64,000 bases of DNA from a virus (Duplodnaviria; Heunggongvirae; Uroviricota; Caudoviricetes), in the IMG/VR virus record IMGVR_UViG_3300043119_000732, one strand, 5' to 3'. Of the stretch, positions 23,413 to 62,219 are shown in pieces. Below the pieces are notes generated by a model. That model was not told where the DNA came from. It made no database searches and was given only the letters and a program-made list of their open reading frames with translations. The translations under genes and the position numbers were made by a program. The stretch's first letter is position 1, and every line of letters begins with the position of its first letter.

Positions 23413-23415
23413 TTT

Positions 23416-23489
23416 ATCCAGCCATGTTCCAAGGTAGGCGATAGAGTCTCCAAAACTCAATGCGGTAAGTTCGATTCTTACGCTGGATG
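23416..23489 (+). tRNA. tRNA-Trp (CCA)
   Basis: Perfect acceptor atccagc/gctggat. Anticodon loop ctCCAaa. Canonical T-arm gtaag-ttcgatt-cttac. The 3' CCA is not encoded. Confidence 0.65.
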
Positions 23490-23515
23490 TTTTTATTTCT
23501 TAACTAAATATAATA

Positions 23516-23845: not shown

Positions 23846-23856
23846 TAAATAATTAA

Positions 23857-24189: not shown

Positions 24190-24192
24190 TTT

Positions 24193-24287
24193 GGAGGGTA
24201 GGTAGATATTGTTCTTGCTACATTTGTTTGCTAAACAAAACCGGACCTTAAAAGCCGGTGAGGGTTAAATTCCCTCACCCTCCGCCA
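24193..24287 (+). tRNA. tRNA-Ser (GCT), type II
   Basis: Acceptor ggagggt/accctcc. D-stem gtag/ctac. Anticodon arm tttgt-ttGCTaa-acaaa. Long variable arm accgg…ccggt. T-arm gaggg-ttaaatt-ccctc. CCA encoded. Confidence 0.65.
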
Positions 24288-24295
24288 TTTTTGTA

Positions 24296-24721
24296 TTGAT
24301 ACTGTATCTAATAAATAATAGTATGGAAGACAAGATTATAAGTGAAAAGTATCTAACTGAAATAGCGTTTACAAAAAGATACGATACAACAGATGATTAT
24401 TATATAATGTTCTGGATGGCTGATGATTACGACAACACTATACAACGTCTTTTTAGTAAAAGTTTAGAAGATACAGTAAGTATTGTCGGTTTGAATAGAC
24501 ACGATAAAAAGCAAGCAATCATTAAAAAACTAGAAGAAAAACCTCTAAACATATTTTACGCTATAGATACTTTTGAAGATAGTAGAGAGATAACGATGAT
24601 ATTAGTAGGTACAAACCCTAAGACTACAGATAAGATGAGTATAGAAATTAACGATAAATATGAAAACGATGCACCCAGTTTCTTTAAATTTCTAAGAGCA
24701 GAAGGTCTAAGAATAAAATGA
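24296..24721 (+). CDS. hypothetical protein
   Basis: 141 aa ORF. Confidence 0.4.
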   Translation: MILYLINNSMEDKIISEKYLTEIAFTKRYDTTDDYYIMFWMADDYDNTIQRLFSKSLEDTVSIVGLNRHDKKQAIIKKLEEKPLNIFYAIDTFEDSREITMILVGTNPKTTDKMSIEINDKYENDAPSFFKFLRAEGLRIK

Positions 24722-24906
24722 TCACGTTTAGTTTATTTTTTGAAGCCAATATACATAAAGCTAGACATCCTGGAAGATTTAAAGCAAAGGTAACTAAACG
24801 CTTTGGTAAAGGTAAGATAACTTGTTCTAAAGCAAGATCTTTTACTTCAAGTAGAGACACACTTACTAAGAAACAAGCAAATAGATTTATTAATTACCAC
24901 TGTTAG
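24718..24906 (+). CDS. hypothetical small basic protein
   Basis: 62 aa ORF, K/R-rich. Confidence 0.3.
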   Translation: MITFSLFFEANIHKARHPGRFKAKVTKRFGKGKITCSKARSFTSSRDTLTKKQANRFINYHC

Positions 24907-24929
24907 AAGGAACAAAAATAAAATTTGGT

Positions 24930-25277
24930 ATGGGAAAAGCTAGATACAGATGTCCTTTACTCGATAAACCAAATCAATGGCATGTTGTTCTTGATATAGA
25001 ACAACAACCTTTCAATTGGGTGTATCCAGATTATAAATGTCGACGTCTCTCTGTTACAAAAAAAGATGATGGTACGTACTTACCTTTGGTCAATGGATCT
25101 AATGATTTCCGTAACGTGCCATATGGTGAGACGTTTACAACAAGTAGCTTAGAAGAAGCTCAAAAGTTTTTATTTACATATATAGATAATATAATCGAGA
25201 GAGATAAAAGGCAAGACAAATCTCAATTAAAAGAGTATCTTAAAACGTATGTTGATAGAAAGCTTAAAGAGCAATAA
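24930..25277 (+). CDS. hypothetical protein
   Basis: 115 aa ORF. Confidence 0.4.
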   Translation: MGKARYRCPLLDKPNQWHVVLDIEQQPFNWVYPDYKCRRLSVTKKDDGTYLPLVNGSNDFRNVPYGETFTTSSLEEAQKFLFTYIDNIIERDKRQDKSQLKEYLKTYVDRKLKEQ

Positions 25278-25315
25278 TTTTTAGTAGTCTCTCTGTGCCT
25301 CTCATGCATAATATA

Positions 25316-25343
25316 ATGTAAGTAATTGCGCAATTACTTACAT
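25316..25343. promoter_or_regulatory. perfect 28-nt palindrome (14-bp stem hairpin)
   Basis: atgtaagtaattgc|gcaattacttacat sits between the last protein gene and the next tRNA block. Confidence 0.5.
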
Positions 25344-25378
25344 TATAGCATTGAAGCATAATTCAGGGAGAGTTTATT

Positions 25379-25454
25379 GGGGAGTTAGCTCATTCAGTAG
25401 AGCAATTGCTTTGCAAGCAATAGGTGACCGGAGCAAAGCCGGTATTCTCCACCA
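25379..25454 (+). tRNA. tRNA-Ala (TGC) with non-canonical T-loop (AGCAAAG)
   Basis: Acceptor ggggagt/attctcc. D-arm gctc-attcagtag-agc. Anticodon arm attgc-ttTGCaa-gcaat. T-arm accgg-agcaaag-ccggt. CCA encoded. Confidence 0.6.
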
Positions 25455-25460
25455 CTTTAT

Positions 25461-25536
25461 GTCTCGTTAGTTCAATGGATCAGAACCTTCGGCTACGGAC
25501 CGAACGATGGAAGTTCGACTCTTCCACGGGACACCA
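25461..25536 (+). tRNA. tRNA-Arg (ACG)
   Basis: Acceptor gtctcgt/acgggac. Anticodon arm ttcgg-ctACGga-ccgaa. T-arm ggaag-ttcgact-cttcc. CCA encoded. Confidence 0.75.
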
Positions 25537-25568
25537 CTTTCTCGAAGACTAATTATCTTCGAGTATGT

Positions 25569-25644
25569 TCGATCGTGACGCCGTTTAGTAAGGCAGAGAA
25601 GCTGGCAAAGTGTCTGCCCGCGGGTGCGAATCCCGTCGGTCGAA
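25569..25644 (+). tRNA. tRNA-like gene, isotype unresolved (oversized anticodon-region loop)
   Basis: Acceptor tcgatcg/cggtcga. T-arm gcggg-tgcgaat-cccgt. The central stem gcaga/tctgc encloses a 15-nt loop. No encoded CCA. Confidence 0.3.
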
Positions 25645-25764
25645 CTACAAATTTGAGAATAGAACAATGGTAGGTGAAACCAAGATGTATATCTTTAGAT
25701 TTAAGTCTGTTCTTTCTTTTCAGAAAGTCTAATCACCGATACTACTGAAAAGTTCTCAATTTAT

Positions 25765-25843
25765 GGGGACATCGTCTAAAAACGTAAAGGACATACCTCT
25801 CTCACAGGTAAAATGCCGGCTCGCATTCCGGTTGCCCCCACCA
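25765..25843 (+). tRNA. tRNA-like, apparent anticodon CTC (Glu-like), non-canonical T-loop
   Basis: Acceptor ggggaca/tgccccc with one mismatch. Anticodon arm tacct-ctCTCac-aggta. T-arm ccgg-ctcgcat-tccgg. CCA encoded. Confidence 0.4.
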
Positions 25844-25918
25844 CTTTCTTTCGGCCATCTGGCACCAAGGCATGCTGCCGTTGAGTTCGGCGGATGGAAT
25901 TGCAATCCGAAAGAATAT

Positions 25919-25994
25919 GCACCAGTGACCGGAAAGGCTACGGCTCAGATTGCAACCCTGATTCATGTCGGTTCAAATCCGACCTGGTGCTCCA
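25919..25994 (+). tRNA. tRNA with GCA anticodon (second Cys-like copy)
   Basis: Acceptor gcaccag/ctggtgc. Anticodon arm tcag-ttGCAac-ctga. T-arm gtcgg-ttcaaat-ccgac. CCA encoded. Confidence 0.55.
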
Positions 25995-26297
25995 CTTTCG
26001 GACCAGAATTGAAGCTGGTGGTGTAAACCTTGGAACAACTGAATGACTTCAATTTCAGCCGTATAGGGGAAGAAACTTACCGAAAGCTTTTATCAGGAGA
26101 TGATGTAGTGATTAGCATACTAGGCTGTGAACCTGGGTGGCAGAGTTTGATTCTCTGGCTCCTGACCAATTTGACGGTAATGGCTGAGTTCGACTCAACA
26201 AGGCAAGTCCAGCAGTTCGCCTTCTGTAACCGTAACCTCCAAGCCTTATGGCTTCGGATATGGCCTTCGTTCCGTTCGCCCGATAAGTAACGGATAT

Positions 26298-26374
26298 GCT
26301 CAGGTAGCCCAACGGTAGAGGCGTCGGTCTTAGAAGCCGAATAGTGATGGGTTCAAATCCCTCCCTGAGCACCA
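26298..26374 (+). tRNA. class-I tRNA with TAG anticodon (Leu-decoding anticodon, short variable arm)
   Basis: Acceptor gctcagg/cctgagc. Anticodon arm tcggt-ctTAGaa-gccga. 5-nt variable loop. T-arm atggg-ttcaaat-ccctc. CCA encoded. Confidence 0.55.
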
Positions 26375-26387: not shown

Positions 26388-27815
26388 TTATCTACTTACC
26401 TCTTCCCAATCAACAGAACCGTAAACAACCTCAACATCAGTACTTGCTGTTACAGCAAGTGTTAGTTCATAAGATTCACCGGTAAAACTATTTCTCTCAA
26501 GTTGGAACTTAAATAAAGCTTCTTTCAATATATCTATTGTTGTAGAACCTTGAGCGTTAGAACTAAAGTAACCAGATGCTAGTACCCTACCACCTGTTAT
26601 ACTAGTGGCGTCAAGTTTATACTGTACAGAAGAGCTACCACCTGCATCTATCCATGTACCGGTACCACCTGCTGAAACACCACTAGCAATAACCTTCCAA
26701 CTATAAATACCTGTACCATCACCCATTAACGATATTGCTGTTAGAATGACAATAGCATCTAATCTACTTGGTCTCAATCTTATGGTTATTACAGGATAGT
26801 ATGTGCCTGCTGTAACAAGACTCTTTGGTGCGGTTATTAATGTACCAACAGATTGTTGTAAACCTCTTAATTCGTAACCACCTTCAGATATTACTGTGCT
26901 ACATACTTGCTTCAATTTACTAGGACTTGCTGTAGCAGCTTTATTTTCTATCTCATATCTAAGAGGTAGTGAAGCTGTAGTTATATAAGTGACATCAATT
27001 ACGTTAGCATGATGAAAATAGTGACAAGGTATAAACTGACCATTTATAATAAAGCCTGTTCTAACTGTACCTAAACCAAGCCACTCTATATCTACAAACA
27101 AAATTTGTGATTTAGTAATATCTAAAATAATACCTGATGGACCTGTACCATCAAGTCGATCTACATTCCATTGTGATTGTGATATACGATTAGATACAAC
27201 TGAACCGCTTGTAATGCTACGTTCAACCATATAAAGCGTACTATCATCTAATTCTAGATATATACCGTTATCATTACCAAAATAACCAGTGCGCTGTCTT
27301 AAATTAGATTTAGCTTGATTGAAACTAAATGAATTCATTATTTGAAGACTCTTACCCGGTTGATAAGAAAATACTTTTGTTGTCTCTCTATATATTTTTG
27401 AACCACTTAATGCATCGACTCTTAACTCTATTAATCCTTGAGCTTGAATAAATTGAGCAGAAGCAGATGTCGATGTAGTACCACCTGTAAGATTAGACCA
27501 AAGACTGTTATCACCATATCTAAATGATGAATCAAAAAGAGTTAATGGACTAGATGTTCTTGTACGACCAAACGCATCACTTGCCATATTCAAGTTACCG
27601 GTATAATTTGCAGTAGTGTTATCAACATTTTTAACCAGAACAGCGTATTTAGAATATACATCCATTGAACTAACTGGTTGTACCCCTACTGTATCAGGCG
27701 AACTAAATCGTACTACAGAAACAGGAGGGAATTGAGTATTGTTAGTTATTTGTATAAACTTATTATATTCTAAAGTCTGATAATTTACCACTACATTTGA
27801 ATCAAATGATCCCAT
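26388..27815 (-). CDS. hypothetical virion/structural-like protein
   Basis: 475 aa ORF, S/T/G-rich, convergent with the tRNA cluster. No diagnostic motif. Confidence 0.45.
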   Translation of the reverse strand: MGSFDSNVVVNYQTLEYNKFIQITNNTQFPPVSVVRFSSPDTVGVQPVSSMDVYSKYAVLVKNVDNTTANYTGNLNMASDAFGRTRTSSPLTLFDSSFRYGDNSLWSNLTGGTTSTSASAQFIQAQGLIELRVDALSGSKIYRETTKVFSYQPGKSLQIMNSFSFNQAKSNLRQRTGYFGNDNGIYLELDDSTLYMVERSITSGSVVSNRISQSQWNVDRLDGTGPSGIILDITKSQILFVDIEWLGLGTVRTGFIINGQFIPCHYFHHANVIDVTYITTASLPLRYEIENKAATASPSKLKQVCSTVISEGGYELRGLQQSVGTLITAPKSLVTAGTYYPVITIRLRPSRLDAIVILTAISLMGDGTGIYSWKVIASGVSAGGTGTWIDAGGSSSVQYKLDATSITGGRVLASGYFSSNAQGSTTIDILKEALFKFQLERNSFTGESYELTLAVTASTDVEVVYGSVDWEEVSR

Positions 27816-27879: not shown

Positions 27880-28425
27880 ATGAAGAAATTACTTACATTT
27901 ATAACTCTACTCATACTAGTTATATCTTTAAGCTCATGCTCAAAGAAATCTACTAATGCTTTACCTTATACAAACGACTCTATACCTGCGTACTTTATAG
28001 ATACACAATGGAAATTGTTATCAAAAGTTCAGAACAGCGGATCATTTCCTTTTACTGGTGATAAAGACTACGCTGTTGTTAATTATGATTGGTTATTTGA
28101 ATTTTATGAAGTATGGAGAGATGAAATATTTGCGCAGAATGTTATAAAATGGGATGATAAATTTGATTGTAACAAATTTGCAACATCTTATATTGCTCGA
28201 GCACAGATCGAATATTTTAAAATAACATGGGGAAATAATAAACCTCAAGCTCTCGCTTTAGCAGAAATATGGTTTACAGAAAAGGAAACAAAAACAGCAA
28301 AATATAATCATGCTATAGTTGCTGCATTAACTAATAAAGGTTTAGTATTTTTTGAACCTCAGACTGGAAAACAAATAATACTAACAGAAAAACAACAGGC
28401 AAGTATCTATTTGAAAAAGTTCTAA
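27880..28425 (+). CDS. putative lipoprotein
   Basis: N-terminal signal peptide with lipobox LSSC (MKKLLTFITLLILVISLSSCSKK). Confidence 0.55.
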   Translation: MKKLLTFITLLILVISLSSCSKKSTNALPYTNDSIPAYFIDTQWKLLSKVQNSGSFPFTGDKDYAVVNYDWLFEFYEVWRDEIFAQNVIKWDDKFDCNKFATSYIARAQIEYFKITWGNNKPQALALAEIWFTEKETKTAKYNHAIVAALTNKGLVFFEPQTGKQIILTEKQQASIYLKKF

Positions 28426-40647: not shown

Positions 40648-40969
40648 AATAATTGAACAGTATACTGATAAAGAGCTTGATGAAAGCTTTTGTAGAGATG
40701 TAGCTAATATACCTTACGAGTATACTGAGCAGGTAGATATAGACTCTCGATGTATATATGAATTTCCTCCACCTAGCTTTTGCCATAACTATATCAGTGG
40801 TGAATTATGGAAGCAGTTAAATGTCTGTGAAAGATATGAGTTTTTCAAGCAAGGGAAGTTGTATACAATAAGACTGTACGAAAATAGTAATGTTTATGAA
40901 TATCAACATGAAACTGTAGGTAGAGCTGTTGTAATTGCATTACTTAAAAAAGAATATAAAATCGCATGA
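40637..40969 (+). CDS. hypothetical protein (start moved to internal ATG to limit overlap)
   Basis: ORF 40613..40969; the MKSKIIEQ… start at 40637 is preferred. Confidence 0.35.
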   Translation: MKSKIIEQYTDKELDESFCRDVANIPYEYTEQVDIDSRCIYEFPPPSFCHNYISGELWKQLNVCERYEFFKQGKLYTIRLYENSNVYEYQHETVGRAVVIALLKKEYKIA

Positions 40970-42000
40970 AAGAAGCACTTTATTATAATCAAGTAACACT
41001 TATACCTAATAAGTGTGTAGTTAACTCACGCTCTCAATGTGATACTACGATTAATTTTTGTGGTTACATATTTAACTTACCAGTAGTACCTGCAAACATG
41101 GCATCGGTTATCGACATAAATAATGCTAAATGGTTAGCGTTTAATAAGCATTTCTATATCTATCATCGCTTTGGAGATACTCGTGATTTTATTAGTCGTT
41201 CTAATTTTGAGCGTTGGCCTCTCGTAAGTATTTCTATTGGTGTACAACCTAGTGATACTATGCTAATTGATTGGCTTGAGATTACTAAATATAAAGTAGA
41301 CTTTATTACAATTGATATTGCTCACGGTTTTGCAGAGTCTGTTGCAGTGATGGTTAGGTATATCAAAAATAAGTTACCCAATACTAAAGTAATCGCTGGT
41401 AATATATGGGGTGATAAACAGTCTATAGAATTTCTACAAAACGCAGGAGCAGATGCAATTAAAGTAGGTTTAAGTTGCGGTGCAGGATGCTCTACATTTA
41501 ATGAGACTGGATTTGGTTCACCAATGTTTAGTGCTGCTTTTGAAGCTGGTGTTAACGCAAAGGTACCAGTAATTCTTGATGGAGGTATTAGACATAATGG
41601 AGATATTGCAAAAGCTATTGTTGCATTCTTATCCAATCAGTTTCAAGCTGTTTATGGAAATCCTTTTAAATGCGGTAATAAACAATGGAGAGAACCACTT
41701 AACGTTCCGATGATTATGGCTGGTAGTATCTTTGCTGCTTGTATTGATGCTCCTGGTGATGATATTATTATTAATGGAAGAGTATGGAAAAATTACTACG
41801 GATCAGCTTCTGCTGAATCCAAAAAGAAGACCGGTCAAGAAGTAAAACACGTTGAAGGTAAGAGCATTGTTCTTGAGGGTAATAGTTTAACTTATGCAGA
41901 AAAATATGATCAAATTAAAGATGCTGTTCAAAGTCAAATTTCATATGCAGGTGGTAATGATTTAACTGCTTTAAAAGATGTTCAATGGAGAAAGATATGA
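40966..42000 (+). CDS. IMP dehydrogenase / GMP reductase family protein (TIM barrel, no obvious CBS pair)
   Basis: KVGLSCGAGCSTFNETGFGSPMFSAA…ILDGGIRHNGDIAKAI matches the IMPDH/GuaC catalytic-loop and phosphate-binding motifs. Confidence 0.6.
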   Translation: MKEALYYNQVTLIPNKCVVNSRSQCDTTINFCGYIFNLPVVPANMASVIDINNAKWLAFNKHFYIYHRFGDTRDFISRSNFERWPLVSISIGVQPSDTMLIDWLEITKYKVDFITIDIAHGFAESVAVMVRYIKNKLPNTKVIAGNIWGDKQSIEFLQNAGADAIKVGLSCGAGCSTFNETGFGSPMFSAAFEAGVNAKVPVILDGGIRHNGDIAKAIVAFLSNQFQAVYGNPFKCGNKQWREPLNVPMIMAGSIFAACIDAPGDDIIINGRVWKNYYGSASAESKKKTGQEVKHVEGKSIVLEGNSLTYAEKYDQIKDAVQSQISYAGGNDLTALKDVQWRKI

Positions 42001-48832: not shown

Positions 48833-49699
48833 ATGAACTTTCGAACATATAAAGGAACACATGAACTTGTGATTAAGCAAGCTACCTTCCCAGGTGGTGA
48901 GGTTCTTATACAAACTCAACCAAACTTTGGGTTTTTTAATACGCAAGATACAATTCGTATTGAAGCGCGTATTCGTAATAGCGATGACTTATTTGCCCTT
49001 GCTCTCATTAAGGATGCTATCGAGAATGAACAGATAACTTATGGTGATAAATCGAGTATTGAGCTTATTATACCTTATGTACCATATGCCCGACAAGATC
49101 GTACATGCTGTAAAGGTGAACCACATAGCCTAAAGGTATTTGCTAAATTTATTAATAATTTGAATTTTGATCGTGTAATCGTATGTGATCCTCATAGCGA
49201 TGTTACTGGTGCATTAATCGATCGAGTTAAAATTATCGACCAGGTACAAATAATTAATGATTTTACAGCGTTTTGTAAACGTGTATTACAGGGTGTACTA
49301 TTTGTAAGTCCAGATGCAGGTGCAAATAAAAAGACTGCAAATGTTGCTAAGTATTTTGACCATATTCGATTTATTCGTGCTGATAAACTTCGTGACCTTG
49401 CAACAGGTAAAATTATTGAAACCTCTATATTTGCGGATGATCTTAATGGTGCTGATATAGTAATTGCAGATGATATTTGCGATGGTGGTCGCACCTTTAT
49501 CGAACTCGCTAAATCTCTTAAGAAAAAGAATGCAGGTAATGTGATTCTATACGTTACTCATGGTATTTTTAGTCAAGGTGTTGATACTCTATTTGCAAAT
49601 GGTATAGATGAGATTTATACAACTAATAGCTACAGTACCGATTTAAATATCGAAGAGAAGAATAAAAATAAGTTATATATCCATAATCTTACATTTTAA
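48833..49699 (+). CDS. prs: ribose-phosphate pyrophosphokinase (PRPP synthetase) family protein; Prs or the phage Adps-type homolog
   Basis: IPYVPYARQDR matches the Prs motif PYFGYARQDR. IVIADDICDGGRTF is the PRPP-binding loop (DDxxDTGGT-like). Confidence 0.75.
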   Translation: MNFRTYKGTHELVIKQATFPGGEVLIQTQPNFGFFNTQDTIRIEARIRNSDDLFALALIKDAIENEQITYGDKSSIELIIPYVPYARQDRTCCKGEPHSLKVFAKFINNLNFDRVIVCDPHSDVTGALIDRVKIIDQVQIINDFTAFCKRVLQGVLFVSPDAGANKKTANVAKYFDHIRFIRADKLRDLATGKIIETSIFADDLNGADIVIADDICDGGRTFIELAKSLKKKNAGNVILYVTHGIFSQGVDTLFANGIDEIYTTNSYSTDLNIEEKNKNKLYIHNLTF

Positions 49700-49763
49700 T
49701 GAAAATAACTGATAAATTTATATTCTTTGATATAGATGTTAGACGTAAAATTACACAAAATTT

Positions 49764-50651
49764 ATGACCAAAAGCGACCCATATCTTTCTAATGAACTTT
49801 GTATAGAACGTCTATACAAAGAATATCAAAAGCATAATAGACTCATCATAGCAGTTGATTATGATGATACCTTATATGATTGGCACGGTAAAGGCACGAC
49901 ACATGAGTTTGTAATTGATCTCATGAAGAGATGCAAAGCTCTTGGATTTTACGTAGTGATATTTACTGCTAGTAAAGTAGAGAGACATACATCGATCAGA
50001 GTTTATTGTGCTGAAAAGGGTATCGAGATAGACTCTATCAATAAGAATCCTATCGCTCTCCCATATGGAAACGAAGGTAAGATATATTATAACATCTTCC
50101 TTTGTGACCGTGCCGGTCTTCGCTCTAGCTATTATATACTAGAGCAGGTTGTTACTCGAATCGAAAAAGAGAGACGCGAAAAGGTTTATCTTAAACCTAC
50201 AGATATCTATAATGGTCATCTCTCTGATCTCGATTCTATTTTCTTAGCTGGTTCTATATCTAATGCAGTCGATTGGCAACAAATTGCTGCTGATAAACTT
50301 ACTCCTCATTTCGATGTATTTAATCCTCGTCGATATGACTTTAACGTACTTGATAGCACGATGGAAGAAGAACAAATTAAATGGGAGTTCGAACATTTAG
50401 TTGCAGCCAAGCAAGTAATATTCTGGTTTAGTAATGAAACACTAGCACCGATTTCTTTATATGGACTTGGATTGTTTGGATATAAAGCACACTTTATTGG
50501 CATACACCCAGAATTTAAACGTAAACGTGATGTAGAAATTCAAACCAAACTCAGAAACCCAGATGCGAAGATATTCTACGATCTTAATGAAATGTTAGAT
50601 GCTGTTATTGCATCCAAAGATGTACTACCAGGAAATAAATTAAAATTATAA
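49764..50651 (+). CDS. fusion protein: HAD-like phosphatase N-domain plus nucleoside 2-deoxyribosyltransferase-like C-domain
   Basis: N-terminal IAVDYDDTLYD is HAD motif I (DxDxT). The C-terminal FLAGSISNAVDW…FDVFNP…VIFWF resembles the nucleoside-deoxyribosyltransferase Rossmann-like family. Confidence 0.5.
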   Translation: MTKSDPYLSNELCIERLYKEYQKHNRLIIAVDYDDTLYDWHGKGTTHEFVIDLMKRCKALGFYVVIFTASKVERHTSIRVYCAEKGIEIDSINKNPIALPYGNEGKIYYNIFLCDRAGLRSSYYILEQVVTRIEKERREKVYLKPTDIYNGHLSDLDSIFLAGSISNAVDWQQIAADKLTPHFDVFNPRRYDFNVLDSTMEEEQIKWEFEHLVAAKQVIFWFSNETLAPISLYGLGLFGYKAHFIGIHPEFKRKRDVEIQTKLRNPDAKIFYDLNEMLDAVIASKDVLPGNKLKL

Positions 50652-50658
50652 TACAATT

Positions 50659-51711
50659 ATGAGCCATTATATTATCACCGGTTCCAGTGTTTCAGTCAAA
50701 AACGAAGCTGCTCTTTCGATTGAAAAGAAACTTCCTGTCGGAAACTATGCCGTAAAGGAACACCCTCAGACCGGGCTTTACCTTGAAATAGTTGATCGAT
50801 TTAAAATGCCAAGCCACATTTTTGGCAATACTCCTGATCGTTCTAAACGTATTATCAATACGTTTCTTGACCGCGAATGCAGCACAGGAGTTTTACTCGC
50901 TGGAGAAAAAGGCAGTGGTAAAACTCTTCTTGCTAAGAGTCTTTCGATTGAGTGTGCTAAACTTGGTTATCCTACCATAATCATTAATAACGATTGGTGC
51001 GGTGATGAGTTTAATCAGCTTATTCAGAATATTGATGAACCTGCAGTTGTAATGTTTGATGAGTTTGAGAAGATATACGATGACGAAAAACAAGAGCAAG
51101 TATTGACGCTTCTTGATGGGGTATACCCTACGAAGAAGCTTTTTGTAATTACTTGTAATGATAAATGGCGTATTAACCAGCATATGCGCAATCGCCCTGG
51201 TCGTTTGTATTATATGCTCGATTATCGTGGACTTGATCAAAACTTCATCGTCGAGTATTGTAATGCGATGCTTAATGAGAAGAAACACATTCAGCTTATC
51301 TGTCGTATCTCTGGGTTGTTTGATTCATTCAACTTCGATATTCTTAAAGCACTTGTCGAAGAGATGAATCGATATAAAGAAGACCCTATCAAAGCTCTTG
51401 AGATGCTCAATGCTAAACCTGGTAGTGATAGTGAAGCTAACTTTAGTATTACGTTTGCTGTTAAAGGTAAAATTCAAGATAAAAACGCAATTTATCCGAA
51501 TATTATCGAAGGTCTACCGCTTGGTAAGACCCACCATTTTACAGTTTATAGTAAAGCTGACAAAAAACCTGACCGCCGTGTTGAAGTTGGTGAAGATAAT
51601 ATTATCAATGTTGATACCGAAAAAGGTATTTTTATATATAAACTAGATGATATGACGTTTACCATGACGCGTGATAACGGCAATCAGATTGACTTCTATA
51701 GACATCTATAA
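50659..51711 (+). CDS. AAA+ ATPase (MoxR/CobS-like), paralog of the 35344 gene
   Basis: Walker A LLAGEKGSGKT. Walker B VVMFDEFE. Also NRPGRLYY. Confidence 0.6.
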   Translation: MSHYIITGSSVSVKNEAALSIEKKLPVGNYAVKEHPQTGLYLEIVDRFKMPSHIFGNTPDRSKRIINTFLDRECSTGVLLAGEKGSGKTLLAKSLSIECAKLGYPTIIINNDWCGDEFNQLIQNIDEPAVVMFDEFEKIYDDEKQEQVLTLLDGVYPTKKLFVITCNDKWRINQHMRNRPGRLYYMLDYRGLDQNFIVEYCNAMLNEKKHIQLICRISGLFDSFNFDILKALVEEMNRYKEDPIKALEMLNAKPGSDSEANFSITFAVKGKIQDKNAIYPNIIEGLPLGKTHHFTVYSKADKKPDRRVEVGEDNIINVDTEKGIFIYKLDDMTFTMTRDNGNQIDFYRHL

Positions 51712-51834
51712 AGTCACGCTTGGGTAGTTGATTCCAAATGAACTTTAATAAAATAATTTTGTTAGATCGATGCGTATATATGAATCATTCAAGTGATTTG
51801 ATTCTGTAAAAGCATCGAGACTCAACACAAACAT

Positions 51835-53421
51835 ATGAAAACTAATCCGCTAAATCTAATCGATGGCTATAAAGCCGACCATCGTCGTCAATATCCAGTA
51901 GGTACTGAGTTGGTTTACTCTAACTTTACCCCGCGTTCTACTAGACACGCTGCAAAAGTAAAAGGAGTTGATAATAAAGTAGTATTCTTTGGCCTTCAAT
52001 ATCTTCTAAAGTGGTTGCTTATTGATACCTTTAATCAGGAGTTCTTCAATCAGCCTAAAGAAAAGGTTATAAAGAAGTATAAGCGCCGTCTTGATAACTA
52101 CCTAGGTACTGGAGCTGTACCTATTGATCATATCGAACAGTTACACGACATCGGTTATCTTCCAATCTCTATTAGTGCCCTACCTGAGGGTGCTGTAGTT
52201 GATGAGAAGATTCCGGTGTTTGTTATCGAAAATACCACCTCAGGTGCTTTTTGGCTTACTAATTATCTCGAGACTATCTTGAGTAATATGATTTGGAAGC
52301 CTTGTACCAGTGCTACAACCGCTCGTAAGTATCGTATTCTTCTTAAGAGATATGCAAAGCTTACCGGTGCTGATGTTAATTTCGTTGACTTCCAAGCTCA
52401 CGATTTTAGCTTCCGTGGTATGTCTAGCCCTCAGGACGCGGTAATGTCTGGTGCTGCTCACCTTGCAGCTGGTAATCTCGGTACCGATACGATCCCTGCG
52501 ATCGATCTACTCGAAGATTACTATAATGCTAACTCTGATAAGGAGCTAGTCGGTTGTTCGGTACCTGCGACTGAACACTCTGTAATGTGTGCTGGTGGTC
52601 AAGGTGATGAACTCTATACCTTTAAACGTCTTATTACTGAGTTATATCCACAAGGTATTGTCTCAATTGTATCCGACACTTGGGACTTCTGGCAGGTTAT
52701 CACAGTATTCTTACCTGCTCTTAAGAACGAGATTCTCGCTCGTAAAGGTGGACCTGTTGGAGATAAGGTTGTAATCCGACCTGACTCTGGCGATCCTATT
52801 CGAATCATCTGTGGTTACAATGAAGACGAAGTCATTCGAAAGGACAGTAAGATTTTCCTTGACGATAACACATCACTGATTAAAGCGATACCAGGAAAAG
52901 AGATCACCGAAGCTGAATTCAAAGGAGCTATCCAGTGCCTTTGGGACACGTTCGGTGGTACTGTAACTGAGAAAGGATTCAAAGTTCTTGACTCTCACAT
53001 TGGTTTGATTTATGGTGACTCGATTACACTCGAGCGCGCCTATCAAATCATGGAAGGGTTGATGAAGAAAGGGTTCGCAAGTACTAACGTCGTTCTCGGT
53101 GTTGGTTCTTATACCTATCAGTATTGTACTCGTGATACTCTTGGATTTGCAATGAAGGCAACATCGGTAACCGTAAATGGTGAAGAGCGTGCGATCTTTA
53201 AGGATCCTAAGACTGATGGTGGTATGAAGAAGTCTGCTAAGGGTTATCTTGCAGTGTTTAAGAACGACAAAGGTGATTATGTCCTCCACGACGAAGTTAC
53301 CAAGGTCGTTGCTGATAACTGCGATCTTAAAGAGGTCTTCCGAGATGGTAAGCTGTTGATTGATTATACTCTAGCCGATATTCGAGCGCGAGTAAATGAG
53401 AGCATTAATAAAGCTCTCTGA
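51835..53421 (+). CDS. nadV: nicotinamide phosphoribosyltransferase (NAMPT/NadV) family
   Basis: Collinear with NAMPT along its length: DGYKADHRRQYP, FGLQYLLK, AFWLTNYLETIL, DFSFRGMSS, VPATEHSVM, IVSDTWDFW, VIRPDSGDP. Confidence 0.85.
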   Translation: MKTNPLNLIDGYKADHRRQYPVGTELVYSNFTPRSTRHAAKVKGVDNKVVFFGLQYLLKWLLIDTFNQEFFNQPKEKVIKKYKRRLDNYLGTGAVPIDHIEQLHDIGYLPISISALPEGAVVDEKIPVFVIENTTSGAFWLTNYLETILSNMIWKPCTSATTARKYRILLKRYAKLTGADVNFVDFQAHDFSFRGMSSPQDAVMSGAAHLAAGNLGTDTIPAIDLLEDYYNANSDKELVGCSVPATEHSVMCAGGQGDELYTFKRLITELYPQGIVSIVSDTWDFWQVITVFLPALKNEILARKGGPVGDKVVIRPDSGDPIRIICGYNEDEVIRKDSKIFLDDNTSLIKAIPGKEITEAEFKGAIQCLWDTFGGTVTEKGFKVLDSHIGLIYGDSITLERAYQIMEGLMKKGFASTNVVLGVGSYTYQYCTRDTLGFAMKATSVTVNGEERAIFKDPKTDGGMKKSAKGYLAVFKNDKGDYVLHDEVTKVVADNCDLKEVFRDGKLLIDYTLADIRARVNESINKAL

Positions 53422-56868: not shown

Positions 56869-57125
56869 AACTATTTACTTCAAGAAAAAAGGTAACACGG
56901 CATCATATTACGATAAGAAAAGACAGGTATGGTAGATGTGACGATACTTGGTGTGAACAGAAACTTTACCGGCAACTCATGTTACATGGTAAAGTAGTGT
57001 TTCAATGGGAGATTGACCACGAAATCGTTCCAGTTTACGCGTGGACCGGATCGGCTTGTTTTGGAGATACTTGTGGATGGGTATCGAAATTTGCTCCATT
57101 TGATGAATATGGAGTATGCAAATAA
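56865..57125 (+). CDS. hypothetical Cys-containing protein
   Basis: ORF 56802..57125. The in-frame ATG at 56865 avoids overlap. Confidence 0.35.
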   Translation: MKLFTSRKKVTRHHITIRKDRYGRCDDTWCEQKLYRQLMLHGKVVFQWEIDHEIVPVYAWTGSACFGDTCGWVSKFAPFDEYGVCK

Positions 57126-57155
57126 ACTATCTAGGAAATTTAATATAATCTTATT

Positions 57156-58328
57156 ATGAAATACTCTACACTTTATAGTCGTACCTCAACAGGTGCTATT
57201 CAGACCTGGTATATAGAAACAGAAGGTGCAAAATACCGTACCGTTTACGGACAGCTTGGAGGTGCTATTCAAACCACAGAATGGTATAATACATACACTA
57301 CCAATGAAGGTAGAGCTAATGCTCGTAATGCAGAAGAGCAAGCAGAGTTTGAAGCACAAGCAATCTTTAAACGCAAGCTTGAATCTGGCTATTGGCTAAA
57401 TATCGATGATATCGATAAGGTTCATTTTGTAGAGCCTATGCTTGCTAAGAATTGGGCTGATAGAAAAGATAAGGTAATGTATCCAGTATGGGTAAATATG
57501 AAGTACGATGGTGCTCGTTCTGTACATGGCATTACTGGCCCGTTTTCGAGAAACGGCAAGCCTTGGAAGACTGCACAACATATCTCAAAAGCACTTCAGC
57601 CAGTGTTTGATAAGTATCCTGATATCATTTTCGATGGAGAGCTTTATTGTCATAAGCTCAATAATAACTTCGAAAAGATAATGAGTCTTATTAAGAAGAC
57701 TAAGCCTACTGTAGCTGATATTGAAGAATCTGCTAATACTATTCAGTATCATATCTATGACATTATTGATACTGTACTTAATTATTCACAGCGTTTAGAA
57801 AAGCTTAATAGTATTCTATCTGAGTGTTTGCAGCCTGGTATAATTAATAATGTAATTTGTATTGCTCCTTCTTATCACTGTAATAATGAAGATGAAGTAA
57901 ATCGCTATTATGAACAGTTTATGGAGCTTGGATATGAAGGGCAGATTATTCGCCTTAATAAGCCATATGAAAATAAACGCTCTTCTAATCTTCTAAAACG
58001 AAAAGATTTCGATGAGAAAGAGTATTATATTATTGATATTGAAGAAGGTGAAGGTAATAAAACAGGTATGTGTGGTCGATTTATCTTGCTAAAAGATATC
58101 GATGATATTAACTACGCTGTTAAGAATTACGGATACAACCATAGTGATATCGATAATAAGTTTAACTCAAATGTAAAAGGCTCTCATGAATATCTAAAGG
58201 AACTACTAGATAATAAACAAACATTTAAAGGTAAGTATGCTAAGGTAAAGTATTTTGGTATTGGTGCTGAAGGTGCGCCAAGATTTCCATACGTTATCGG
58301 TATTAGAGATGGAGTAGGAGTAGATTAA
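57156..58328 (+). CDS. lig: ATP-dependent DNA ligase
   Basis: Motif I MKYDGAR (KxDG). FSRNGK. Motif IV IFDGELY. Confidence 0.7.
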   Translation: MKYSTLYSRTSTGAIQTWYIETEGAKYRTVYGQLGGAIQTTEWYNTYTTNEGRANARNAEEQAEFEAQAIFKRKLESGYWLNIDDIDKVHFVEPMLAKNWADRKDKVMYPVWVNMKYDGARSVHGITGPFSRNGKPWKTAQHISKALQPVFDKYPDIIFDGELYCHKLNNNFEKIMSLIKKTKPTVADIEESANTIQYHIYDIIDTVLNYSQRLEKLNSILSECLQPGIINNVICIAPSYHCNNEDEVNRYYEQFMELGYEGQIIRLNKPYENKRSSNLLKRKDFDEKEYYIIDIEEGEGNKTGMCGRFILLKDIDDINYAVKNYGYNHSDIDNKFNSNVKGSHEYLKELLDNKQTFKGKYAKVKYFGIGAEGAPRFPYVIGIRDGVGVD

Positions 58329-58332
58329 TTTT

Positions 58333-58518
58333 ATGAGAAACCCAAACCGCATACCAATTCTTATTGAGAAGTTTCAAAAGATCTGGACAGCTATGCCTGA
58401 CTTGAGATTCGGTCAGCTATGTGTTATTATCTTTGGATCAGAGGATAAGATGTTCAATATGGAAGATGATGAATTTGAGAAGAGGCTTGATGCTTTTTTG
58501 ACTAAAATATGCTTATAA
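58333..58518 (+). CDS. hypothetical small protein
   Basis: 61 aa ORF. Confidence 0.3.
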   Translation: MRNPNRIPILIEKFQKIWTAMPDLRFGQLCVIIFGSEDKMFNMEDDEFEKRLDAFLTKICL

Positions 58519-58865
58519 AAGAATTTGAAAATGGTGTACTATATGCTTTAATATTAGATGGTACACAGATTAAAACATCTGATCATGCAATTGCGTATGA
58601 TACTAATACATATCTACACGCTGGACTTATTATTGAGTTACATGATACTTTTTTTAGTGTAATGAAAAATAGGTATGGTACTGAAGATAAAAACATACCT
58701 ATTTTTTTACTTGACGATTATTTAAACCATTATAGTAATAAGTTTCAACATAAGTCACCTATATTAGATAATTTTGCATCTACATCAATTGCGGATATAT
58801 TATCCAATCCAGTACCTAAGTATAAATATGCAAATTTAGCAGATATTCTTAAACCACCATTTTAA
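58509..58865 (+). CDS. hypothetical protein
   Basis: 118 aa ORF. Confidence 0.4.
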   Translation: MLIKEFENGVLYALILDGTQIKTSDHAIAYDTNTYLHAGLIIELHDTFFSVMKNRYGTEDKNIPIFLLDDYLNHYSNKFQHKSPILDNFASTSIADILSNPVPKYKYANLADILKPPF

Positions 58866-58866
58866 T

Positions 58867-59448
58867 ATGAAAATAGGAGATATAGTAGTTTATACACAAA
58901 AAGCACCCCGTAGTGAGTTTCCTGAGAACGTACGTGATGGTGTTGTAGTAGATATTGCTCCAAATAATATCTATGTACGACCATATAATTGTAAGTGTAA
59001 TGTTTGCTTTAACCCAAACGAGCTTAGAGTTATACTTCCAGGTAGATTGAGAGAGAGTAAGAAGGTACAACCTAGTAAGCCTAAAAAGTCTAAGATTGAG
59101 AATGAGTTTCAGACATATATGGACTGGAAAGTTGCTGGTAGGTATGTACGCAAAGGTGAAAGATATATGAAACGAAATGAAGATGGTGAGTGCCTTTTTC
59201 ATCGATCACAAACCAATTGCTCAGTAACTGAACAACCCAGAACCTTTAAAAGAAATTGGAGTAGATCTATCGATGATGAGATGTATGAAGATAGTATAAC
59301 AGAACCGACCCCGGTCCGAACTTATTACTCAGACTTTATGGGTGGTAGATCACGTGTTACAGAGTATTCTGACGGCACAACTAAGTCAGATTACTTAGGT
59401 ATGGCAGGTGAAGATGATGTACCTTGTGGTATAAGTCTAGGAATGTAA
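58867..59448 (+). CDS. hypothetical protein
   Basis: 193 aa ORF. Confidence 0.4.
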   Translation: MKIGDIVVYTQKAPRSEFPENVRDGVVVDIAPNNIYVRPYNCKCNVCFNPNELRVILPGRLRESKKVQPSKPKKSKIENEFQTYMDWKVAGRYVRKGERYMKRNEDGECLFHRSQTNCSVTEQPRTFKRNWSRSIDDEMYEDSITEPTPVRTYYSDFMGGRSRVTEYSDGTTKSDYLGMAGEDDVPCGISLGM

Positions 59449-59687
59449 ATAATAATGTGAAGAGATTGCTCTTTAGTATATTGCTTTGTATATCATATAC
59501 TACATACTCACAGGATATGATACCTGCTGACTGGTCAGATATCGTGTATTTTGATAATAATGGTAATGGTTGGGGGCCTGGAGGTAAACCTAGACCCCCT
59601 GTACCTGAACCTGATTCATATGGTATGATTATGTTAGGTATATCTCTAACATATGCTTTATTCTTAAGAAGAATACCTAGAAAGTAA
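59424..59687 (+). CDS. small secreted protein with PEP-CTERM sorting signal
   Basis: N-terminal signal-like LLFSILLCISYTTYS. C-terminal PVPEPDSYGMIMLGISLTYALFLRRIPRK gives PEP, then a transmembrane helix, then an Arg cluster. Confidence 0.5.
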   Translation: MWYKSRNVNNNVKRLLFSILLCISYTTYSQDMIPADWSDIVYFDNNGNGWGPGGKPRPPVPEPDSYGMIMLGISLTYALFLRRIPRK

Positions 59688-59716
59688 TCCTAGGAAATTC
59701 TATAATATAAGGGTGT

Positions 59717-59956
59717 ATGAGATACATATTACTCTTCTTATTTTTAGGTCTTACCGGGGTAGCAATCTGGAAGATCTTTACTAGCGCGGCATTTGACCGT
59801 TTTCTTAGCAATCTTTCAAAGAAAACTGATGCTTCTACAATTCAAAGCGAATTTGATATTGCCAATAAACGTGCTAATAACTATAATAGCACGTTAGATA
59901 AAACACAGCAAAAGATCAATGCTGAAAAACATAGAGTATCAAATATTAAAAAGTAA
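59717..59956 (+). CDS. small membrane-anchored protein
   Basis: 79 aa with an N-terminal transmembrane helix and a charged tail. Confidence 0.4.
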   Translation: MRYILLFLFLGLTGVAIWKIFTSAAFDRFLSNLSKKTDASTIQSEFDIANKRANNYNSTLDKTQQKINAEKHRVSNIKK

Positions 59957-60000
59957 TCAAGGAAATTTTGTAAAATTTTAATTGTTAAATATAATAAATT

Positions 60001-61269
60001 ATGGAACTAAAAAATATAATTAAACTCGCAAGCGTCGGTGCTGTCGTTATTGGTGGTATCCTTGTATTTAGTGGTGCTGTCGGTCATAATGACGACCAAG
60101 ATTGGCAGGTGCTGCAATACCCTAATGGAACGGTTCGAATTATTGATAATCCTGGATGGTATGGTAAATGGTACGGCACTGTCTGGACATACCCTCGTAA
60201 CTGGCAGTTTGAGTTTACGAGGGAGATCACGAATGAGTCTCCTACAGATGAGTCGACTCGTGTAACGTTTAATGACGGTGGTACCGCAGATGTTGATGCT
60301 ATGATTTCATTTGCATCACCCCCTACAGTTGACAATAAGCGTGAATTCCATCGCCGTTTCGGTGGTAATCACGATGCTATTAAGAACTCAGTTTGGGGAC
60401 ATCTTTCAAACGTTCTTAAGGCCTCTGGACCTCTGATGAGTGCATCTGAGAATCAGGCTGCTCGTAAGTCTGAATTTAATAATGTTGCATATGAACAGAT
60501 GAATGCAGGTTTGTATGAGATGCGACGTATTGAACGAACTCTAGATCAGATTGACGAAAAGGGTAACCCAATTAAAGTTCTTGCGACTGAAGTAGTAGTT
60601 GATAAGAATGGTAAACCTATCGTTTCACAAACCTCACCACTCAAACACCTCGGTATTCATGTAACCCAGTTTTCTATTACTGAGACTGAATACGATGAGC
60701 AGACTCGAAAGCAATTTGCACAAAAGAAGGAAGCATTTTTACAGGCAGAATCTGCAAAAGCGCAACGTGAAGGTGAGGTTCAGCAGCGTTTGATGATTAT
60801 CGAGAAGGGTCTTCGTGAGAAGGCTGAGACCGAAGCTAAGTCAAATCGTGAAAAGGCTGAGGCTGTTATTCGTGCTGAGAAAGAAAAACAGGTTGCTGAA
60901 ACTGAAGCTGCAAAGCTCCTATCAGTAGCAAAGCTTGATAAAGAAACTGCTGAGACTGCGGCCATGAAACAGCTTGAAGTGGCACGACTTGAACGTCAGG
61001 CTGCTGAAGAAACGGCTAAACAAGTTATTGAACTTGCGAAAGCTGAAAAGGAACGCATTGCGTTGGGTGGTGCTCTCACAGAAGAGAAGAAGGTACTAGC
61101 TGAGATTGCTGCACGACGTGACGTAGATGTTGCTGCGGCGCTTGCTAAAGTTGCAGTACCAAGTACAGTTATTACTGGTGGTGCTGGAGCTAATGGTAAT
61201 GATGGAGCCAGCGTGAATGAGAACTTAATGAATCTGACCCTGCTAAAGAGTATGGGTATTATTAAATAA
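60001..61269 (+). CDS. SPFH (band 7 / HflK-like) domain membrane protein
   Basis: N-terminal transmembrane helix. The C-terminal Ala/Glu/Lys-rich coiled region (QAESAKAQREGEVQQRLMIIEKGLREKAETEAK…) is typical of HflK/C and prohibitin. Confidence 0.55.
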   Translation: MELKNIIKLASVGAVVIGGILVFSGAVGHNDDQDWQVLQYPNGTVRIIDNPGWYGKWYGTVWTYPRNWQFEFTREITNESPTDESTRVTFNDGGTADVDAMISFASPPTVDNKREFHRRFGGNHDAIKNSVWGHLSNVLKASGPLMSASENQAARKSEFNNVAYEQMNAGLYEMRRIERTLDQIDEKGNPIKVLATEVVVDKNGKPIVSQTSPLKHLGIHVTQFSITETEYDEQTRKQFAQKKEAFLQAESAKAQREGEVQQRLMIIEKGLREKAETEAKSNREKAEAVIRAEKEKQVAETEAAKLLSVAKLDKETAETAAMKQLEVARLERQAAEETAKQVIELAKAEKERIALGGALTEEKKVLAEIAARRDVDVAAALAKVAVPSTVITGGAGANGNDGASVNENLMNLTLLKSMGIIK

Positions 61270-61284
61270 GTTTAAGGTAGTTAG

Positions 61285-61318
61285 AAAGAGACTTCAAGAG
61301 TGATCTTGAAGTCTCTTT
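61285..61318 (+). terminator. hairpin terminator candidate
   Basis: aaagagacttcaaga-gtgat-cttgaagtctcttt, a 15-bp stem. Confidence 0.5.
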
Positions 61319-61342
61319 CCCTGTCATATAATATGAAGACAT

Positions 61343-61663
61343 ATGAATAACGTTGTACAAATTACAGATCAAACATTTGCAGATACTATTAATTATAATA
61401 ATATAGTAGTGATTGATTATTACGCTAACTGGTGTGGTCCTTGTAAAGCCTATAGCCCTATATTTGATAGGGTTGCTAAAGAGTTTATTGGAAGAGCAGT
61501 TTTTGGTAAAATCAATACAGATGAGTTTAGTTTCATGAGTGAACATAATATTCGTTCACTACCCACTACAGTCGTTCTAAAGAACAGACAGGTGGTAGAA
61601 AAGATTACAGGTATAATCACCGAAGAAGACCTACGCAATAATATAACAAAGCATGTATCTTGA
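61343..61663 (+). CDS. trxA: thioredoxin
   Basis: WCGPCK active site. 106 aa. Confidence 0.8.
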   Translation: MNNVVQITDQTFADTINYNNIVVIDYYANWCGPCKAYSPIFDRVAKEFIGRAVFGKINTDEFSFMSEHNIRSLPTTVVLKNRQVVEKITGIITEEDLRNNITKHVS

Positions 61664-62219
61664 AATATCGGGAAGACAATCAGGCAAGACAGAGCGCCTT
61701 ATCGATTTTGCTATCGATAAGGCACGTAAAGGTGATACTGTTTTAATAAGTACGTTTAATATACGTAATGTAAGTACGATAAAAAATCACATACGCAGTA
61801 AAGTAGCTAATGAAAAAATTATTATAGATTGCGGTAATCGCATATATAAAGAAGTTGGATTAATTAGTCTAATAGATATCACTGATAAATGCATCGATAC
61901 TGCTGTTTGTTTTAGAAAATATAAATGGAAGTGTTTTGATGAATTTGATTTTAACTCTTTTATTCGACCAGAATATATTGATAAAAACTGTTATTTCGTT
62001 ACCTCTCCCAAGTATCTCCGTAAGGTAGAAGAAAGAAAACAAACAAATAATAGTGATTTACTTTACCAATTAGTTTTGAAGAAGAAATATCGATATAGGT
62101 GTTTTATAAAGGAGCAAGTGCTAAAGCTACCAAATTTAACTATTAATGAGCGTACAGGTATATGGATGCTAGATAAAAATAATAATCCTATTGAACCTAA
62201 AGAATATACTATAGTATGA
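61653..62219 (+). CDS. P-loop NTPase-like hypothetical protein
   Basis: SGRQSGKTE is a Walker A motif. Confidence 0.4.
   Translation: MYLEISGRQSGKTERLIDFAIDKARKGDTVLISTFNIRNVSTIKNHIRSKVANEKIIIDCGNRIYKEVGLISLIDITDKCIDTAVCFRKYKWKCFDEFDFNSFIRPEYIDKNCYFVTSPKYLRKVEERKQTNNSDLLYQLVLKKKYRYRCFIKEQVLKLPNLTINERTGIWMLDKNNNPIEPKEYTIV

Follow-up and report, generated by a model that had tools for sequence, protein, structure and literature searches.

Does a tailed phage encode a protein that carries the sorting signal of the bacterial exosortase system, and to what use would such a protein be put? The question is raised by a short open reading frame (ORF) in the IMG/VR virus record IMGVR_UViG_3300043119_000732 (Caudoviricetes), from which we analysed a stretch of 64,000 nucleotides, referred to below as the window. 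The ORF lies on the + strand (59424..59687) and, read from a TTG start codon, encodes 87 amino acids that end in ...PVPEPDSYGMIMLGISLTYALFLRRIPRK*. The original prediction, made from the letters of the window alone, had described it as a phage gene for a small protein with a PEP-CTERM tail, addressed to an exosortase of the host, and both the ORF and its C-terminal sequence are found in the translated window exactly as given there. Judged against curated models and its own relatives, the C-terminus is a canonical PEP-CTERM sorting signal, and we consider it rather probable that this phage mini-protein, which joins a predicted signal peptide to a genuine PEP-CTERM tail, is exported and sorted by the exosortase of the host, as a surface tag or as a competing substrate.

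The PEP-CTERM family of Pfam (PF07589) matches the protein with 22.1 bits in the 87-residue form and 22.5 bits in the 76-residue form that we prefer below (gathering cut-off 20.7), at E-values of 1.2-1.6e-4 against the whole Pfam library and over the full model (positions 1-24 of 24), with the match ending 4 residues from the C-terminus. The NCBIfam hidden Markov model (HMM) TIGR02595, which had been named as a check on the assignment, gives 15.9 bits for the longer and 16.3 bits for the shorter form, a borderline result at its cut-off of 16, and the remaining NCBIfam matches of the protein are all to C-terminal tails of named PEP-CTERM families. The PEP motif itself is P50-E51-P52, with V49 just before it; the uncharged stretch that follows has a mean Kyte-Doolittle hydropathy of 2.12, and the basic cluster RRIPRK stands directly before the stop codon. 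When all six-frame ORFs of the window were scanned for a P[EDST][PA] motif followed by an uncharged hydrophobic stretch of 13-22 residues and a C-terminal basic cluster, this ORF was the only one to carry the pattern; in 200 triplet-shuffled windows the pattern turned up at a rate of 0.005 per window, and its strict PEP form not at all. The tripartite signal proposed at the outset is thus borne out by both models and by its uniqueness in the window, and the shuffles disfavour a chance origin. Motif, helix, basic tail, C-terminal position, an HMM score above threshold and, by a heuristic call, a signal peptide are all present. Several paralogous PEP-CTERM proteins per genome are not, as the window has one and each related phage locus likewise a single one, against a median of eight per genome in bacteria (PMC1569441); a single copy is what would be expected of a phage that borrows the system of its host, yet it is unlike the bacterial pattern.

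The signal is also conserved among relatives. While a word-indexed search returned only the protein itself, exhaustive searching of 1.84 billion representatives with phmmer uncovered small relatives of 49-97 residues, with E-values down to 1e-11, and a profile search collected 32 proteins at E <= 0.01, with E-values down to 1e-30. Overall, the family comprises about 30 relatives of 44-104 residues with a short and variable cargo, and its strong members share a common layout: a signal peptide, an [IT]xADWSxxxY motif, a spacer that differs in length and composition, GWGxGG-KPKP, VVPEP-x-x-YG, a hydrophobic stretch of about 15 residues and an RR/KK cluster. In the 32-sequence alignment, whose mean column identity is 24%, P50, E51, P52 and G56 are invariant and the preceding V and the Y are kept in at least 90% of the sequences; R71 is likewise kept at 90% or more among the 16 strong members. 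PF07589 matches 21 of the 32 members at E <= 0.01 and TIGR02595 matches 29 of them at E <= 0.1; the secondary NCBIfam matches across the family are, again, all PEP-CTERM tails. The most constrained region is thereby the sorting motif together with the basic, proline-rich stretch before it (KPKP-VVPEP-x-YG) and, since the cargo is minimal and variable, this suggests that the sorting signal itself may be the functional core of these proteins.

Within this common layout, the spacer between ADWS and the PEP motif is hypervariable and of low complexity, with a (GN)n tract expanded to ~45 residues in one orthologue (L003:3027-3150) and a KD repeat in another (L009:1279-1515); both of these also contain N-I-T sequons, of which the copy in the window has none. 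In the window protein, the linker that joins the signal peptide to the transmembrane helix is rich in glycine and asparagine. A weaker subfamily, represented by L010:8001-8177, L011:8001-8159 and the contig that encodes P0174, has 52-69 residues and the pattern DPWxPY..KGKG..PVVPEP..TM..RR; the start codon of its genes overlaps the stop codon of the preceding gene (ATGA), which leaves no room for a signal peptide, and its members would need to insert with the N-terminus outside, without a leader, for their PEP motif to be periplasmic. Giant repeat proteins (P0139, P0140 and others) were rejected as relatives, as they match only through a repeated VYFDSNGNGQLD motif that resembles IVYFDNNGNGWG of the window protein (59541-59576), and were treated as non-homologous. 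In P0139 and P0140 the VYFDSNGNGQLD unit looks like a calcium-binding loop, and its likeness to IVYFDNNGNGWG, which other family members lack, is probably convergent or a matter of low complexity.

As a full-length family, these proteins are previously undescribed and have no counterpart in NCBIfam, PHROGs or isolated phages. The window protein has no match in PHROGs v4, and tblastn against 50,697 GenBank phage records returned nothing for it (E <= 10) or for its relatives P0161 and P0142 (E <= 1). The pattern [PD][VPI]VPEP[AD]xYG, built on a 7-sequence alignment, occurs 51 times in 185,579 reference genomes (one per species), and the only match confirmed by tblastn is the tail of an ordinary 232-residue PEP-CTERM protein in a normal chromosomal setting, in a gammaproteobacterial metagenome-assembled genome (MAG); the phage tail is therefore of the canonical bacterial type, and the small family is not a normal bacterial gene. 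A scan of metagenomes yielded further copies of the small family along with large bacterial PEP-CTERM proteins that match in the tail alone. The family seems to be confined to phages.

That the ORF is a real gene is indicated by its orthologues. Those at loci L003 and L009 are syntenic, lying between the same flanking genes as in the window, and differ from the window gene in length only by in-frame changes, at a dN/dS of 0.40-0.44 with dS near saturation; by the measure of these comparisons, selection acts on the ORF, and the gene is real. It occupies a 268-nt gap in a long, tightly packed, co-directional array, between an upstream gene that ends at 59448 and a downstream gene that starts at 59717. 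Of the gene model proposed originally, the ORF and its stop codon stand, while the TTG start and the length of 87 residues are likely to give way to GTG 59457 and 76 residues (Table 1). TTG 59424 overlaps the upstream gene, whereas GTG 59457 follows its stop codon by 9 nt and corresponds in position to the starts of the orthologues, which are GTG at L003 and ATG at L009. With a matrix built on the 20 nt upstream of 61 gene starts of the window (mean score 2.95), the context of GTG 59457 scores 4.20, a value reached by none of 251 internal start-like codons, while TTG 59424 scores -1.24 and ATG 59517, the start in public gene calls (P0001, 56 residues), -4.80. For these three reasons, namely a start common to the orthologues, the context score and the position behind the upstream stop codon, GTG 59457 is most likely the true start and TTG 59424 is probably unused. 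The start at ATG 59517 removes the hydrophobic N-terminus, and the L003 orthologue has no methionine at that place.

In this phage, a Shine-Dalgarno-like motif precedes only 4 of the 61 genes; what comes before the starts is a stretch rich in A and poor in G and C, often TAAATA(A/T). The segment before GTG 59457 is of this kind and has the TAAATA-type motif that many of the phage genes have in front of them; it overlaps the upstream stop codon, and the same arrangement is found at L003 and L009. Automatic calls also shorten two further proteins besides P0001, so that P0001, P0146 and P0154 begin at internal ATG or TTG codons (56, 97 and 85 residues), hiding the signal peptide, and the precomputed Pfam column is empty for all three. 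In bacteria, too, misplaced start codons have been reported to conceal the signal peptide of PEP-CTERM proteins; once the starts are corrected, 97% of the proteins have one (Haft et al. 2006, PMC1569441).

An N-terminus resembling a signal peptide had been claimed for the 87-residue form, and this impression holds with either start, becoming classical with GTG 59457. A heuristic scan for n-, h- and c-regions reads the 76-residue form as MKRLLFSILLCISYTTYS|QD, with KR in the n-region, LLFSILLCI as the h-region and small residues at -3/-1 (T-Y-S|Q). The orthologues have divergent but equivalent predicted signal peptides (MKKIILALFLFFAVCTHA|QQ and MRALITLLTFIVCIQTYA|QS and, after correction of the start at L006, MRKYFTICIIFSLLMVHARG|QM), as do most strong members of the family.

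Table 1. Location of the gene, its upstream context and the predicted parts of its product in the window.
Feature	Position	Strand	Basis
A-rich pre-start context without Shine-Dalgarno motif, CTAGGAATGTAAATAATAAT	59437..59456	+	listing of 61 upstream regions, matrix
Revised gene model, 76-residue pre-protein and stop codon	59457..59687	+	GTG start, orthologue starts, context score, dN/dS
Predicted Sec signal peptide MKRLLFSILLCISYTTYS, cleavage predicted before Q19	59457..59510	+	heuristic n/h/c-region scan, orthologue conservation
Short predicted mature cargo of ~29 residues, QDMIPADWSDIVYFDNNGNGWGPGGKPRP	59511..59597	+	family motifs ADWS and GWGxGG-KPxP
PEP-CTERM domain, PF07589 match, residues 48-72	59598..59672	+	HMM; PEP motif at 59604-59612
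Hydrophobic membrane-spanning segment YGMIMLGISLTYALFL	59619..59666	+	read from sequence, hydropathy
C-terminal basic cluster RRIPRK, predicted cytoplasmic	59667..59684	+	read from sequence

The gene recurs on diverse phage-like contigs. We examined eight distinct contexts of the small protein, all of them phage-like and representing at least four phage types, and in each it sits in a dense, mostly co-directional array of small genes with phage-type enzymes. These contexts include 1) L003 and L009, from the same phage group as the window, where the gene lies between a gene for 186-198 residues and one for a 79-residue protein, followed by an SPFH gene, 2) L006/L007, on a 60-kb contig with radical-SAM, NAD synthase/QueC, RNA ligase and AAA genes, 3) L008, a different phage type on a 39-kb contig with ThyX, GP88 and a P22-type protein, 4) L010, on a 204-kb contig with DNA polymerase III alpha, RtcB and a dNMP kinase, 5) the 184-kb contig of P0174, with a ribonucleotide reductase, a methylase and an NAD-dependent ligase, 6) L011 (identical to L013), on a 55-kb contig classed as viral by IMG/VR, and 7) L015, with an exonuclease, ThyX and a DNA methyltransferase, for which a PHROG scan found generic phage enzymes only. 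Their GC content ranges from 35% to 66%, and the hosts of the family members therefore probably differ. In two relatives of the window phage, L004 and L005, the 79-residue and SPFH genes are kept and the PEP-CTERM gene is absent, which makes it an accessory gene at a variable spot of the replication-gene region, whose place is taken by other genes in some relatives.

Following the established model of the pathway (PMC1569441, PMC12188702), the Sec machinery would export the pre-protein and signal peptidase I would cut it after MKRLLFSILLCISYTTYS, leaving a peptide of ~58 residues that its C-terminal helix would anchor in the inner membrane, with RRIPRK in the cytoplasm and V-P-E-P at the periplasmic face. 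In this position the C-terminus would act as a PEP-CTERM sorting signal, as its match to two curated HMMs and the invariance of the motif across the family suggest, and a host exosortase (EpsH/Xrt) would be expected to recognise and cleave the tail, so that the cargo of ~30 residues might be released or transferred. Speculatively, the product could be a tag, attached to the surface or to exopolysaccharide, that alters the surface of the infected cell, or a competing substrate that occupies the exosortase; decoration of the envelope and a block on superinfection had been proposed before, and a role as surface tag, exclusion factor or exosortase decoy is equally speculative here. A more specific version, which we regard as rather doubtful, would make the whole family an anti-exosortase counter-measure, whose minimal decoys saturate or cap the exosortase or its acceptor during infection and thereby strip or remodel the exopolysaccharide-associated coat. 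If this were true, competing phages would be excluded or progeny freed from the matrix, and these proteins would be the smallest natural exosortase substrates known, with a reaction product tractable by mass spectrometry.

How do other explanations fare against sorting by a host exosortase? The protein could be a small membrane-anchored periplasmic peptide that does not involve an exosortase, in which VPEP is a proline-rich linker before a generic stop-transfer anchor and which might block DNA injection or regulate lysis, like Imm and Sp of phage T4. No exosortase is encoded within the window, the gene stands among early-type replication genes and adjoins those for two membrane proteins (the 79-residue transmembrane protein and the SPFH protein), the relatives without a signal peptide would insert like small N-out coat proteins, and the TIGR02595 score is borderline, all of which would fit such a peptide. 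A generic anchor, however, would not hold V-P-E-P-x-x-Y-G invariant or nearly so across 32 sequences as divergent as these, nor would it be expected to draw matches from two independently curated PEP-CTERM models in most members and, in the secondary NCBIfam matches, from PEP-CTERM tails only; on balance we find this explanation unlikely. Much less probable, to the point of being very improbable, is a part in lysis, either as a unimolecular spanin-like protein, with an outer membrane lipoprotein signal and an inner membrane anchor, or as partner of the 79-residue protein encoded downstream, whose N-terminal transmembrane helix followed by a coiled-coil-like region recalls i-spanins. The cysteine within the signal peptide (LLC|IS) and the C-terminal transmembrane segment would suit this role, but the cysteine is not in a lipobox (the -1 residue is L here and V in L003 and L009) and is absent from the strong members P0152, P0160 and P0164; moreover, ~30 periplasmic residues would not reach across the periplasm, the neighbourhood (a DNA ligase, the SPFH protein, a thioredoxin and an exonuclease) holds no recognisable endolysin or holin, and L004 and L005 retain the 79-residue and SPFH genes without the PEP-CTERM gene. 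As for a spurious ORF, or a chance likeness to PEP-CTERM in AT-rich sequence, the shortness of the ORF, its non-ATG start, the disagreement of public gene callers on that start and the 24-position HMM could be held in its favour; against these stand the in-frame indels and the dN/dS of ~0.4 to the orthologues, the tight fit into the array, the shuffle expectation and a family of about 30 members drawn from 1.84 billion representatives, by which an artefact is, as far as sequence comparison goes, effectively refuted.

Several observations weigh against sorting by a host exosortase itself. The TIGR02595 score lies only at the threshold, and in a model of 24 positions hydrophobic tails inflate scores; the subfamily without signal peptides (L010, L011) departs from the design of a tripartite tail plus signal peptide; each phage locus has a single PEP-CTERM gene, whereas bacterial systems typically have many; several loci were called phage-like by gene content and not by hallmark structural genes; and the window, outside which lie ~145 kb of the phage, codes for no multi-pass membrane protein resembling an exosortase. 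To these is added, for the host proposed below, that the GC content is 34% in the window and 53% in the corresponding bacterial locus, and that one shared gene is weak evidence for a host. Processing by a host exosortase is the reading that we infer from the conserved signal.

Which host might supply the exosortase is hinted at by the neighbouring genes. The gene pair encoding the 79-residue protein, with its transmembrane and coiled-coil regions, and a 422-residue SPFH/Band-7 protein (59717-61269) recurs throughout a large group of metagenomic phages of ~200 kb. A scan of IMG/VR with the SPFH protein alone gave no confirmed relative. This SPFH protein is 55% identical to P0036, a chromosomal protein of marine Akkermansiaceae MAGs (Verrucomicrobiota), whose gene (L021:10001-11305) sits between pyrH/frr and rplT/rpmI in a plainly bacterial locus that also holds hflX and gltB; the 90%-identity clusters of the housekeeping proteins at this locus have members named Akkermansiaceae bacterium, Verrucomicrobiota bacterium and Luteolibacter algae. 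The 79-residue protein has no detectable similarity to the product of the small gene that precedes the SPFH gene in Akkermansiaceae. A Shine-Dalgarno-like motif precedes none of the 18 genes of L021, and glutamine is found at +1 in three of four signal peptides, so that the locus shows the same two features as the phage; the three genes concerned (6350-7063, ..LHA|QE; 14935-16089, ..LSA|QE; 18003-20969, ..VFA|QL) are a very small sample. The discovery of PEP-CTERM was made in the phylum Verrucomicrobia, where Verrucomicrobium spinosum has 65 such proteins (PMC1569441), and Akkermansia muciniphila has 21 in addition to EpsH, Amuc_1470 (PMC3048395). The SPFH likeness suggests gene exchange with Verrucomicrobiota and may serve as a clue to the host; a verrucomicrobial host, with marine Akkermansiaceae as the best clue, is plausible, but as it rests on one shared gene we put it forward tentatively, with somewhat less than even confidence.

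Two other routes to a host were followed and given up. A host among Bacteroidota was suggested by the starts without Shine-Dalgarno motif, the low GC content and the glutamine at +1, a rule described as specific to Bacteroidetes (PMC5837995). It was downgraded because the substrates of XrtF are predicted to be unlike PEP-CTERM (PMC10936215), and also because the verrucomicrobial locus L021 shows the same starts and the same glutamine. For the phage at L008, a host assignment through its GP88-like protein was dropped, since the gene is promiscuous across phages of unrelated hosts.

The view of the window as phage DNA is corroborated by 24 tRNA genes, a T4-type baseplate wedge protein, tail-fibre and virion proteins, and, around the gene, an ATP-dependent DNA ligase, the SPFH/Band-7 protein, a thioredoxin and a PolB-type exonuclease, at a GC content of ~34%. 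A protein identical to the one studied here is on record on contigs of up to 209,417 bp, and the carrier is therefore an uncultured jumbo myophage. It is not close to any isolated phage: megablast of positions 57000-62000 found no match among GenBank phages, the baseplate protein is 23-28% identical to proteins of T4-like cyanophages, and the ligase reaches at best 41%, with an uncultured 595-kb phage.

Some further features of the window were recorded along the way. The tRNA array occupies 18922-26374 on the + strand and covers most amino acids, with long predictions (93-95 nt) for Tyr, Ile-tat and two Ser tRNAs. Next to it, the virion structural protein of phrog_1645 (26388-27815, - strand) is 60-62% identical to proteins of the marine Synechococcus myophages S-RIM8, S-RIM50 and S-WAM2 and of HMO-2011, a podophage of SAR116, a likeness to these phages that no other gene of the window comes near; judged from these identities, the gene looks mobile, and its relatives suggest a marine origin. 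A cluster for nucleotide and NAD salvage (40966-42000 and 48833-53421) encodes IMPDH/GMP-reductase-like, PRPP-synthetase-like, nucleoside 2-deoxyribosyltransferase-like and NAMPT/NAPRTase-like proteins, and an 874-residue protein (2857-5481, - strand) has tail-fibre/collar PHROG matches in its N-terminal and RCC1-like repeats in its C-terminal half. The only other clearly exported protein noticed in the window is one of 181 residues (27880-28425, + strand) with a lipoprotein-type N-terminus, MKKLLTFITLLILVISLSS|C. Finally, TAnnTTTG (TANNTTTG) occurs at 134 sites, against 84 +/- 9 in dinucleotide-preserving shuffles, on both strands and over coding regions, and the Bacteroidetes promoter motif TTTG-N-TAnnTTTG has 8 matches, mostly inside genes, against 2.9 expected; the excess of TANNTTTG may reflect oligonucleotide bias rather than promoters.

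Exosortases are widespread, and to our knowledge neither the target to which the cleaved protein is attached nor its exit route is known. In the literature searched, we found no paper that combines 'exosortase' with 'phage-encoded', and those that name both PEP-CTERM and phage are about genes of the host or mention such a domain in passing, in a mobile element of Dehalococcoides. The family described here suggests that phages of PEP-CTERM-bearing bacteria exploit, or interfere with, the exosortase pathway. It would offer natural minimal substrates, with a cargo of ~30 residues, for biochemical study, as well as a marker of host range, since exosortase-positive hosts would be expected for phages that carry one of these genes; the family also illustrates that automatic gene calls systematically shorten these genes and mask their signal peptides.

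Among known phage products, Llp, the lipoprotein of T5, and Sp and Imm of T4 make use of sorting or lipidation pathways of the host, in surface remodelling and superinfection exclusion. The protein described here resembles them as a small phage envelope protein that would need export and processing by the host and is encoded among early or accessory genes, but it has no sequence similarity to them, and its putative pathway is the exosortase, not Lol/Lgt or simple Sec. The coat protein of phage Pf3 consists of a short N-terminal tail, one transmembrane segment and a basic C-terminus, inserts N-out/C-in and has no PEP motif; the relatives without signal peptide (L010:8001-8177 and L011:8001-8159, 52-58 residues) are built like it, without homology, whereas the window protein differs in its predicted cleavable signal peptide. 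A scarcity of Shine-Dalgarno motifs at starts and glutamine at +1 after the signal peptide are shared with the group of Flavobacterium johnsoniae and its XrtF system. As XrtF is the only exosortase known in Bacteroidota and its substrates are predicted to be unlike PEP-CTERM (PMC10936215, PMC12188702), whereas the window protein has a canonical PEP-CTERM tail, it is an unlikely partner.

The closest likeness is to the bacterial PEP-CTERM/exosortase systems themselves (EpsH/XrtA, CrtB), exemplified by PepA of Zoogloea resiniphila, the 21 proteins of Akkermansia muciniphila and the 35 of Nostoc punctiforme. As in these, a signal peptide is combined with Pro-Glu-Pro, a transmembrane helix and a C-terminal basic cluster (PMC1569441, PMC12188702), both PF07589 and TIGR02595 match, and the cargo has no homology to known domains. 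Unlike these, the protein is encoded by a phage in a single copy, whereas the bacteria have many paralogues along with an exopolysaccharide locus; its cargo has ~30 residues, against proteins of 232 to 1087 residues at the bacterial loci L012, L014, L018 and L019; and its best-conserved part is the sorting motif with the basic, proline-rich stretch before it. What appears to be new is thus the setting and the form, a phage-restricted family of minimal PEP-CTERM proteins with almost no cargo.

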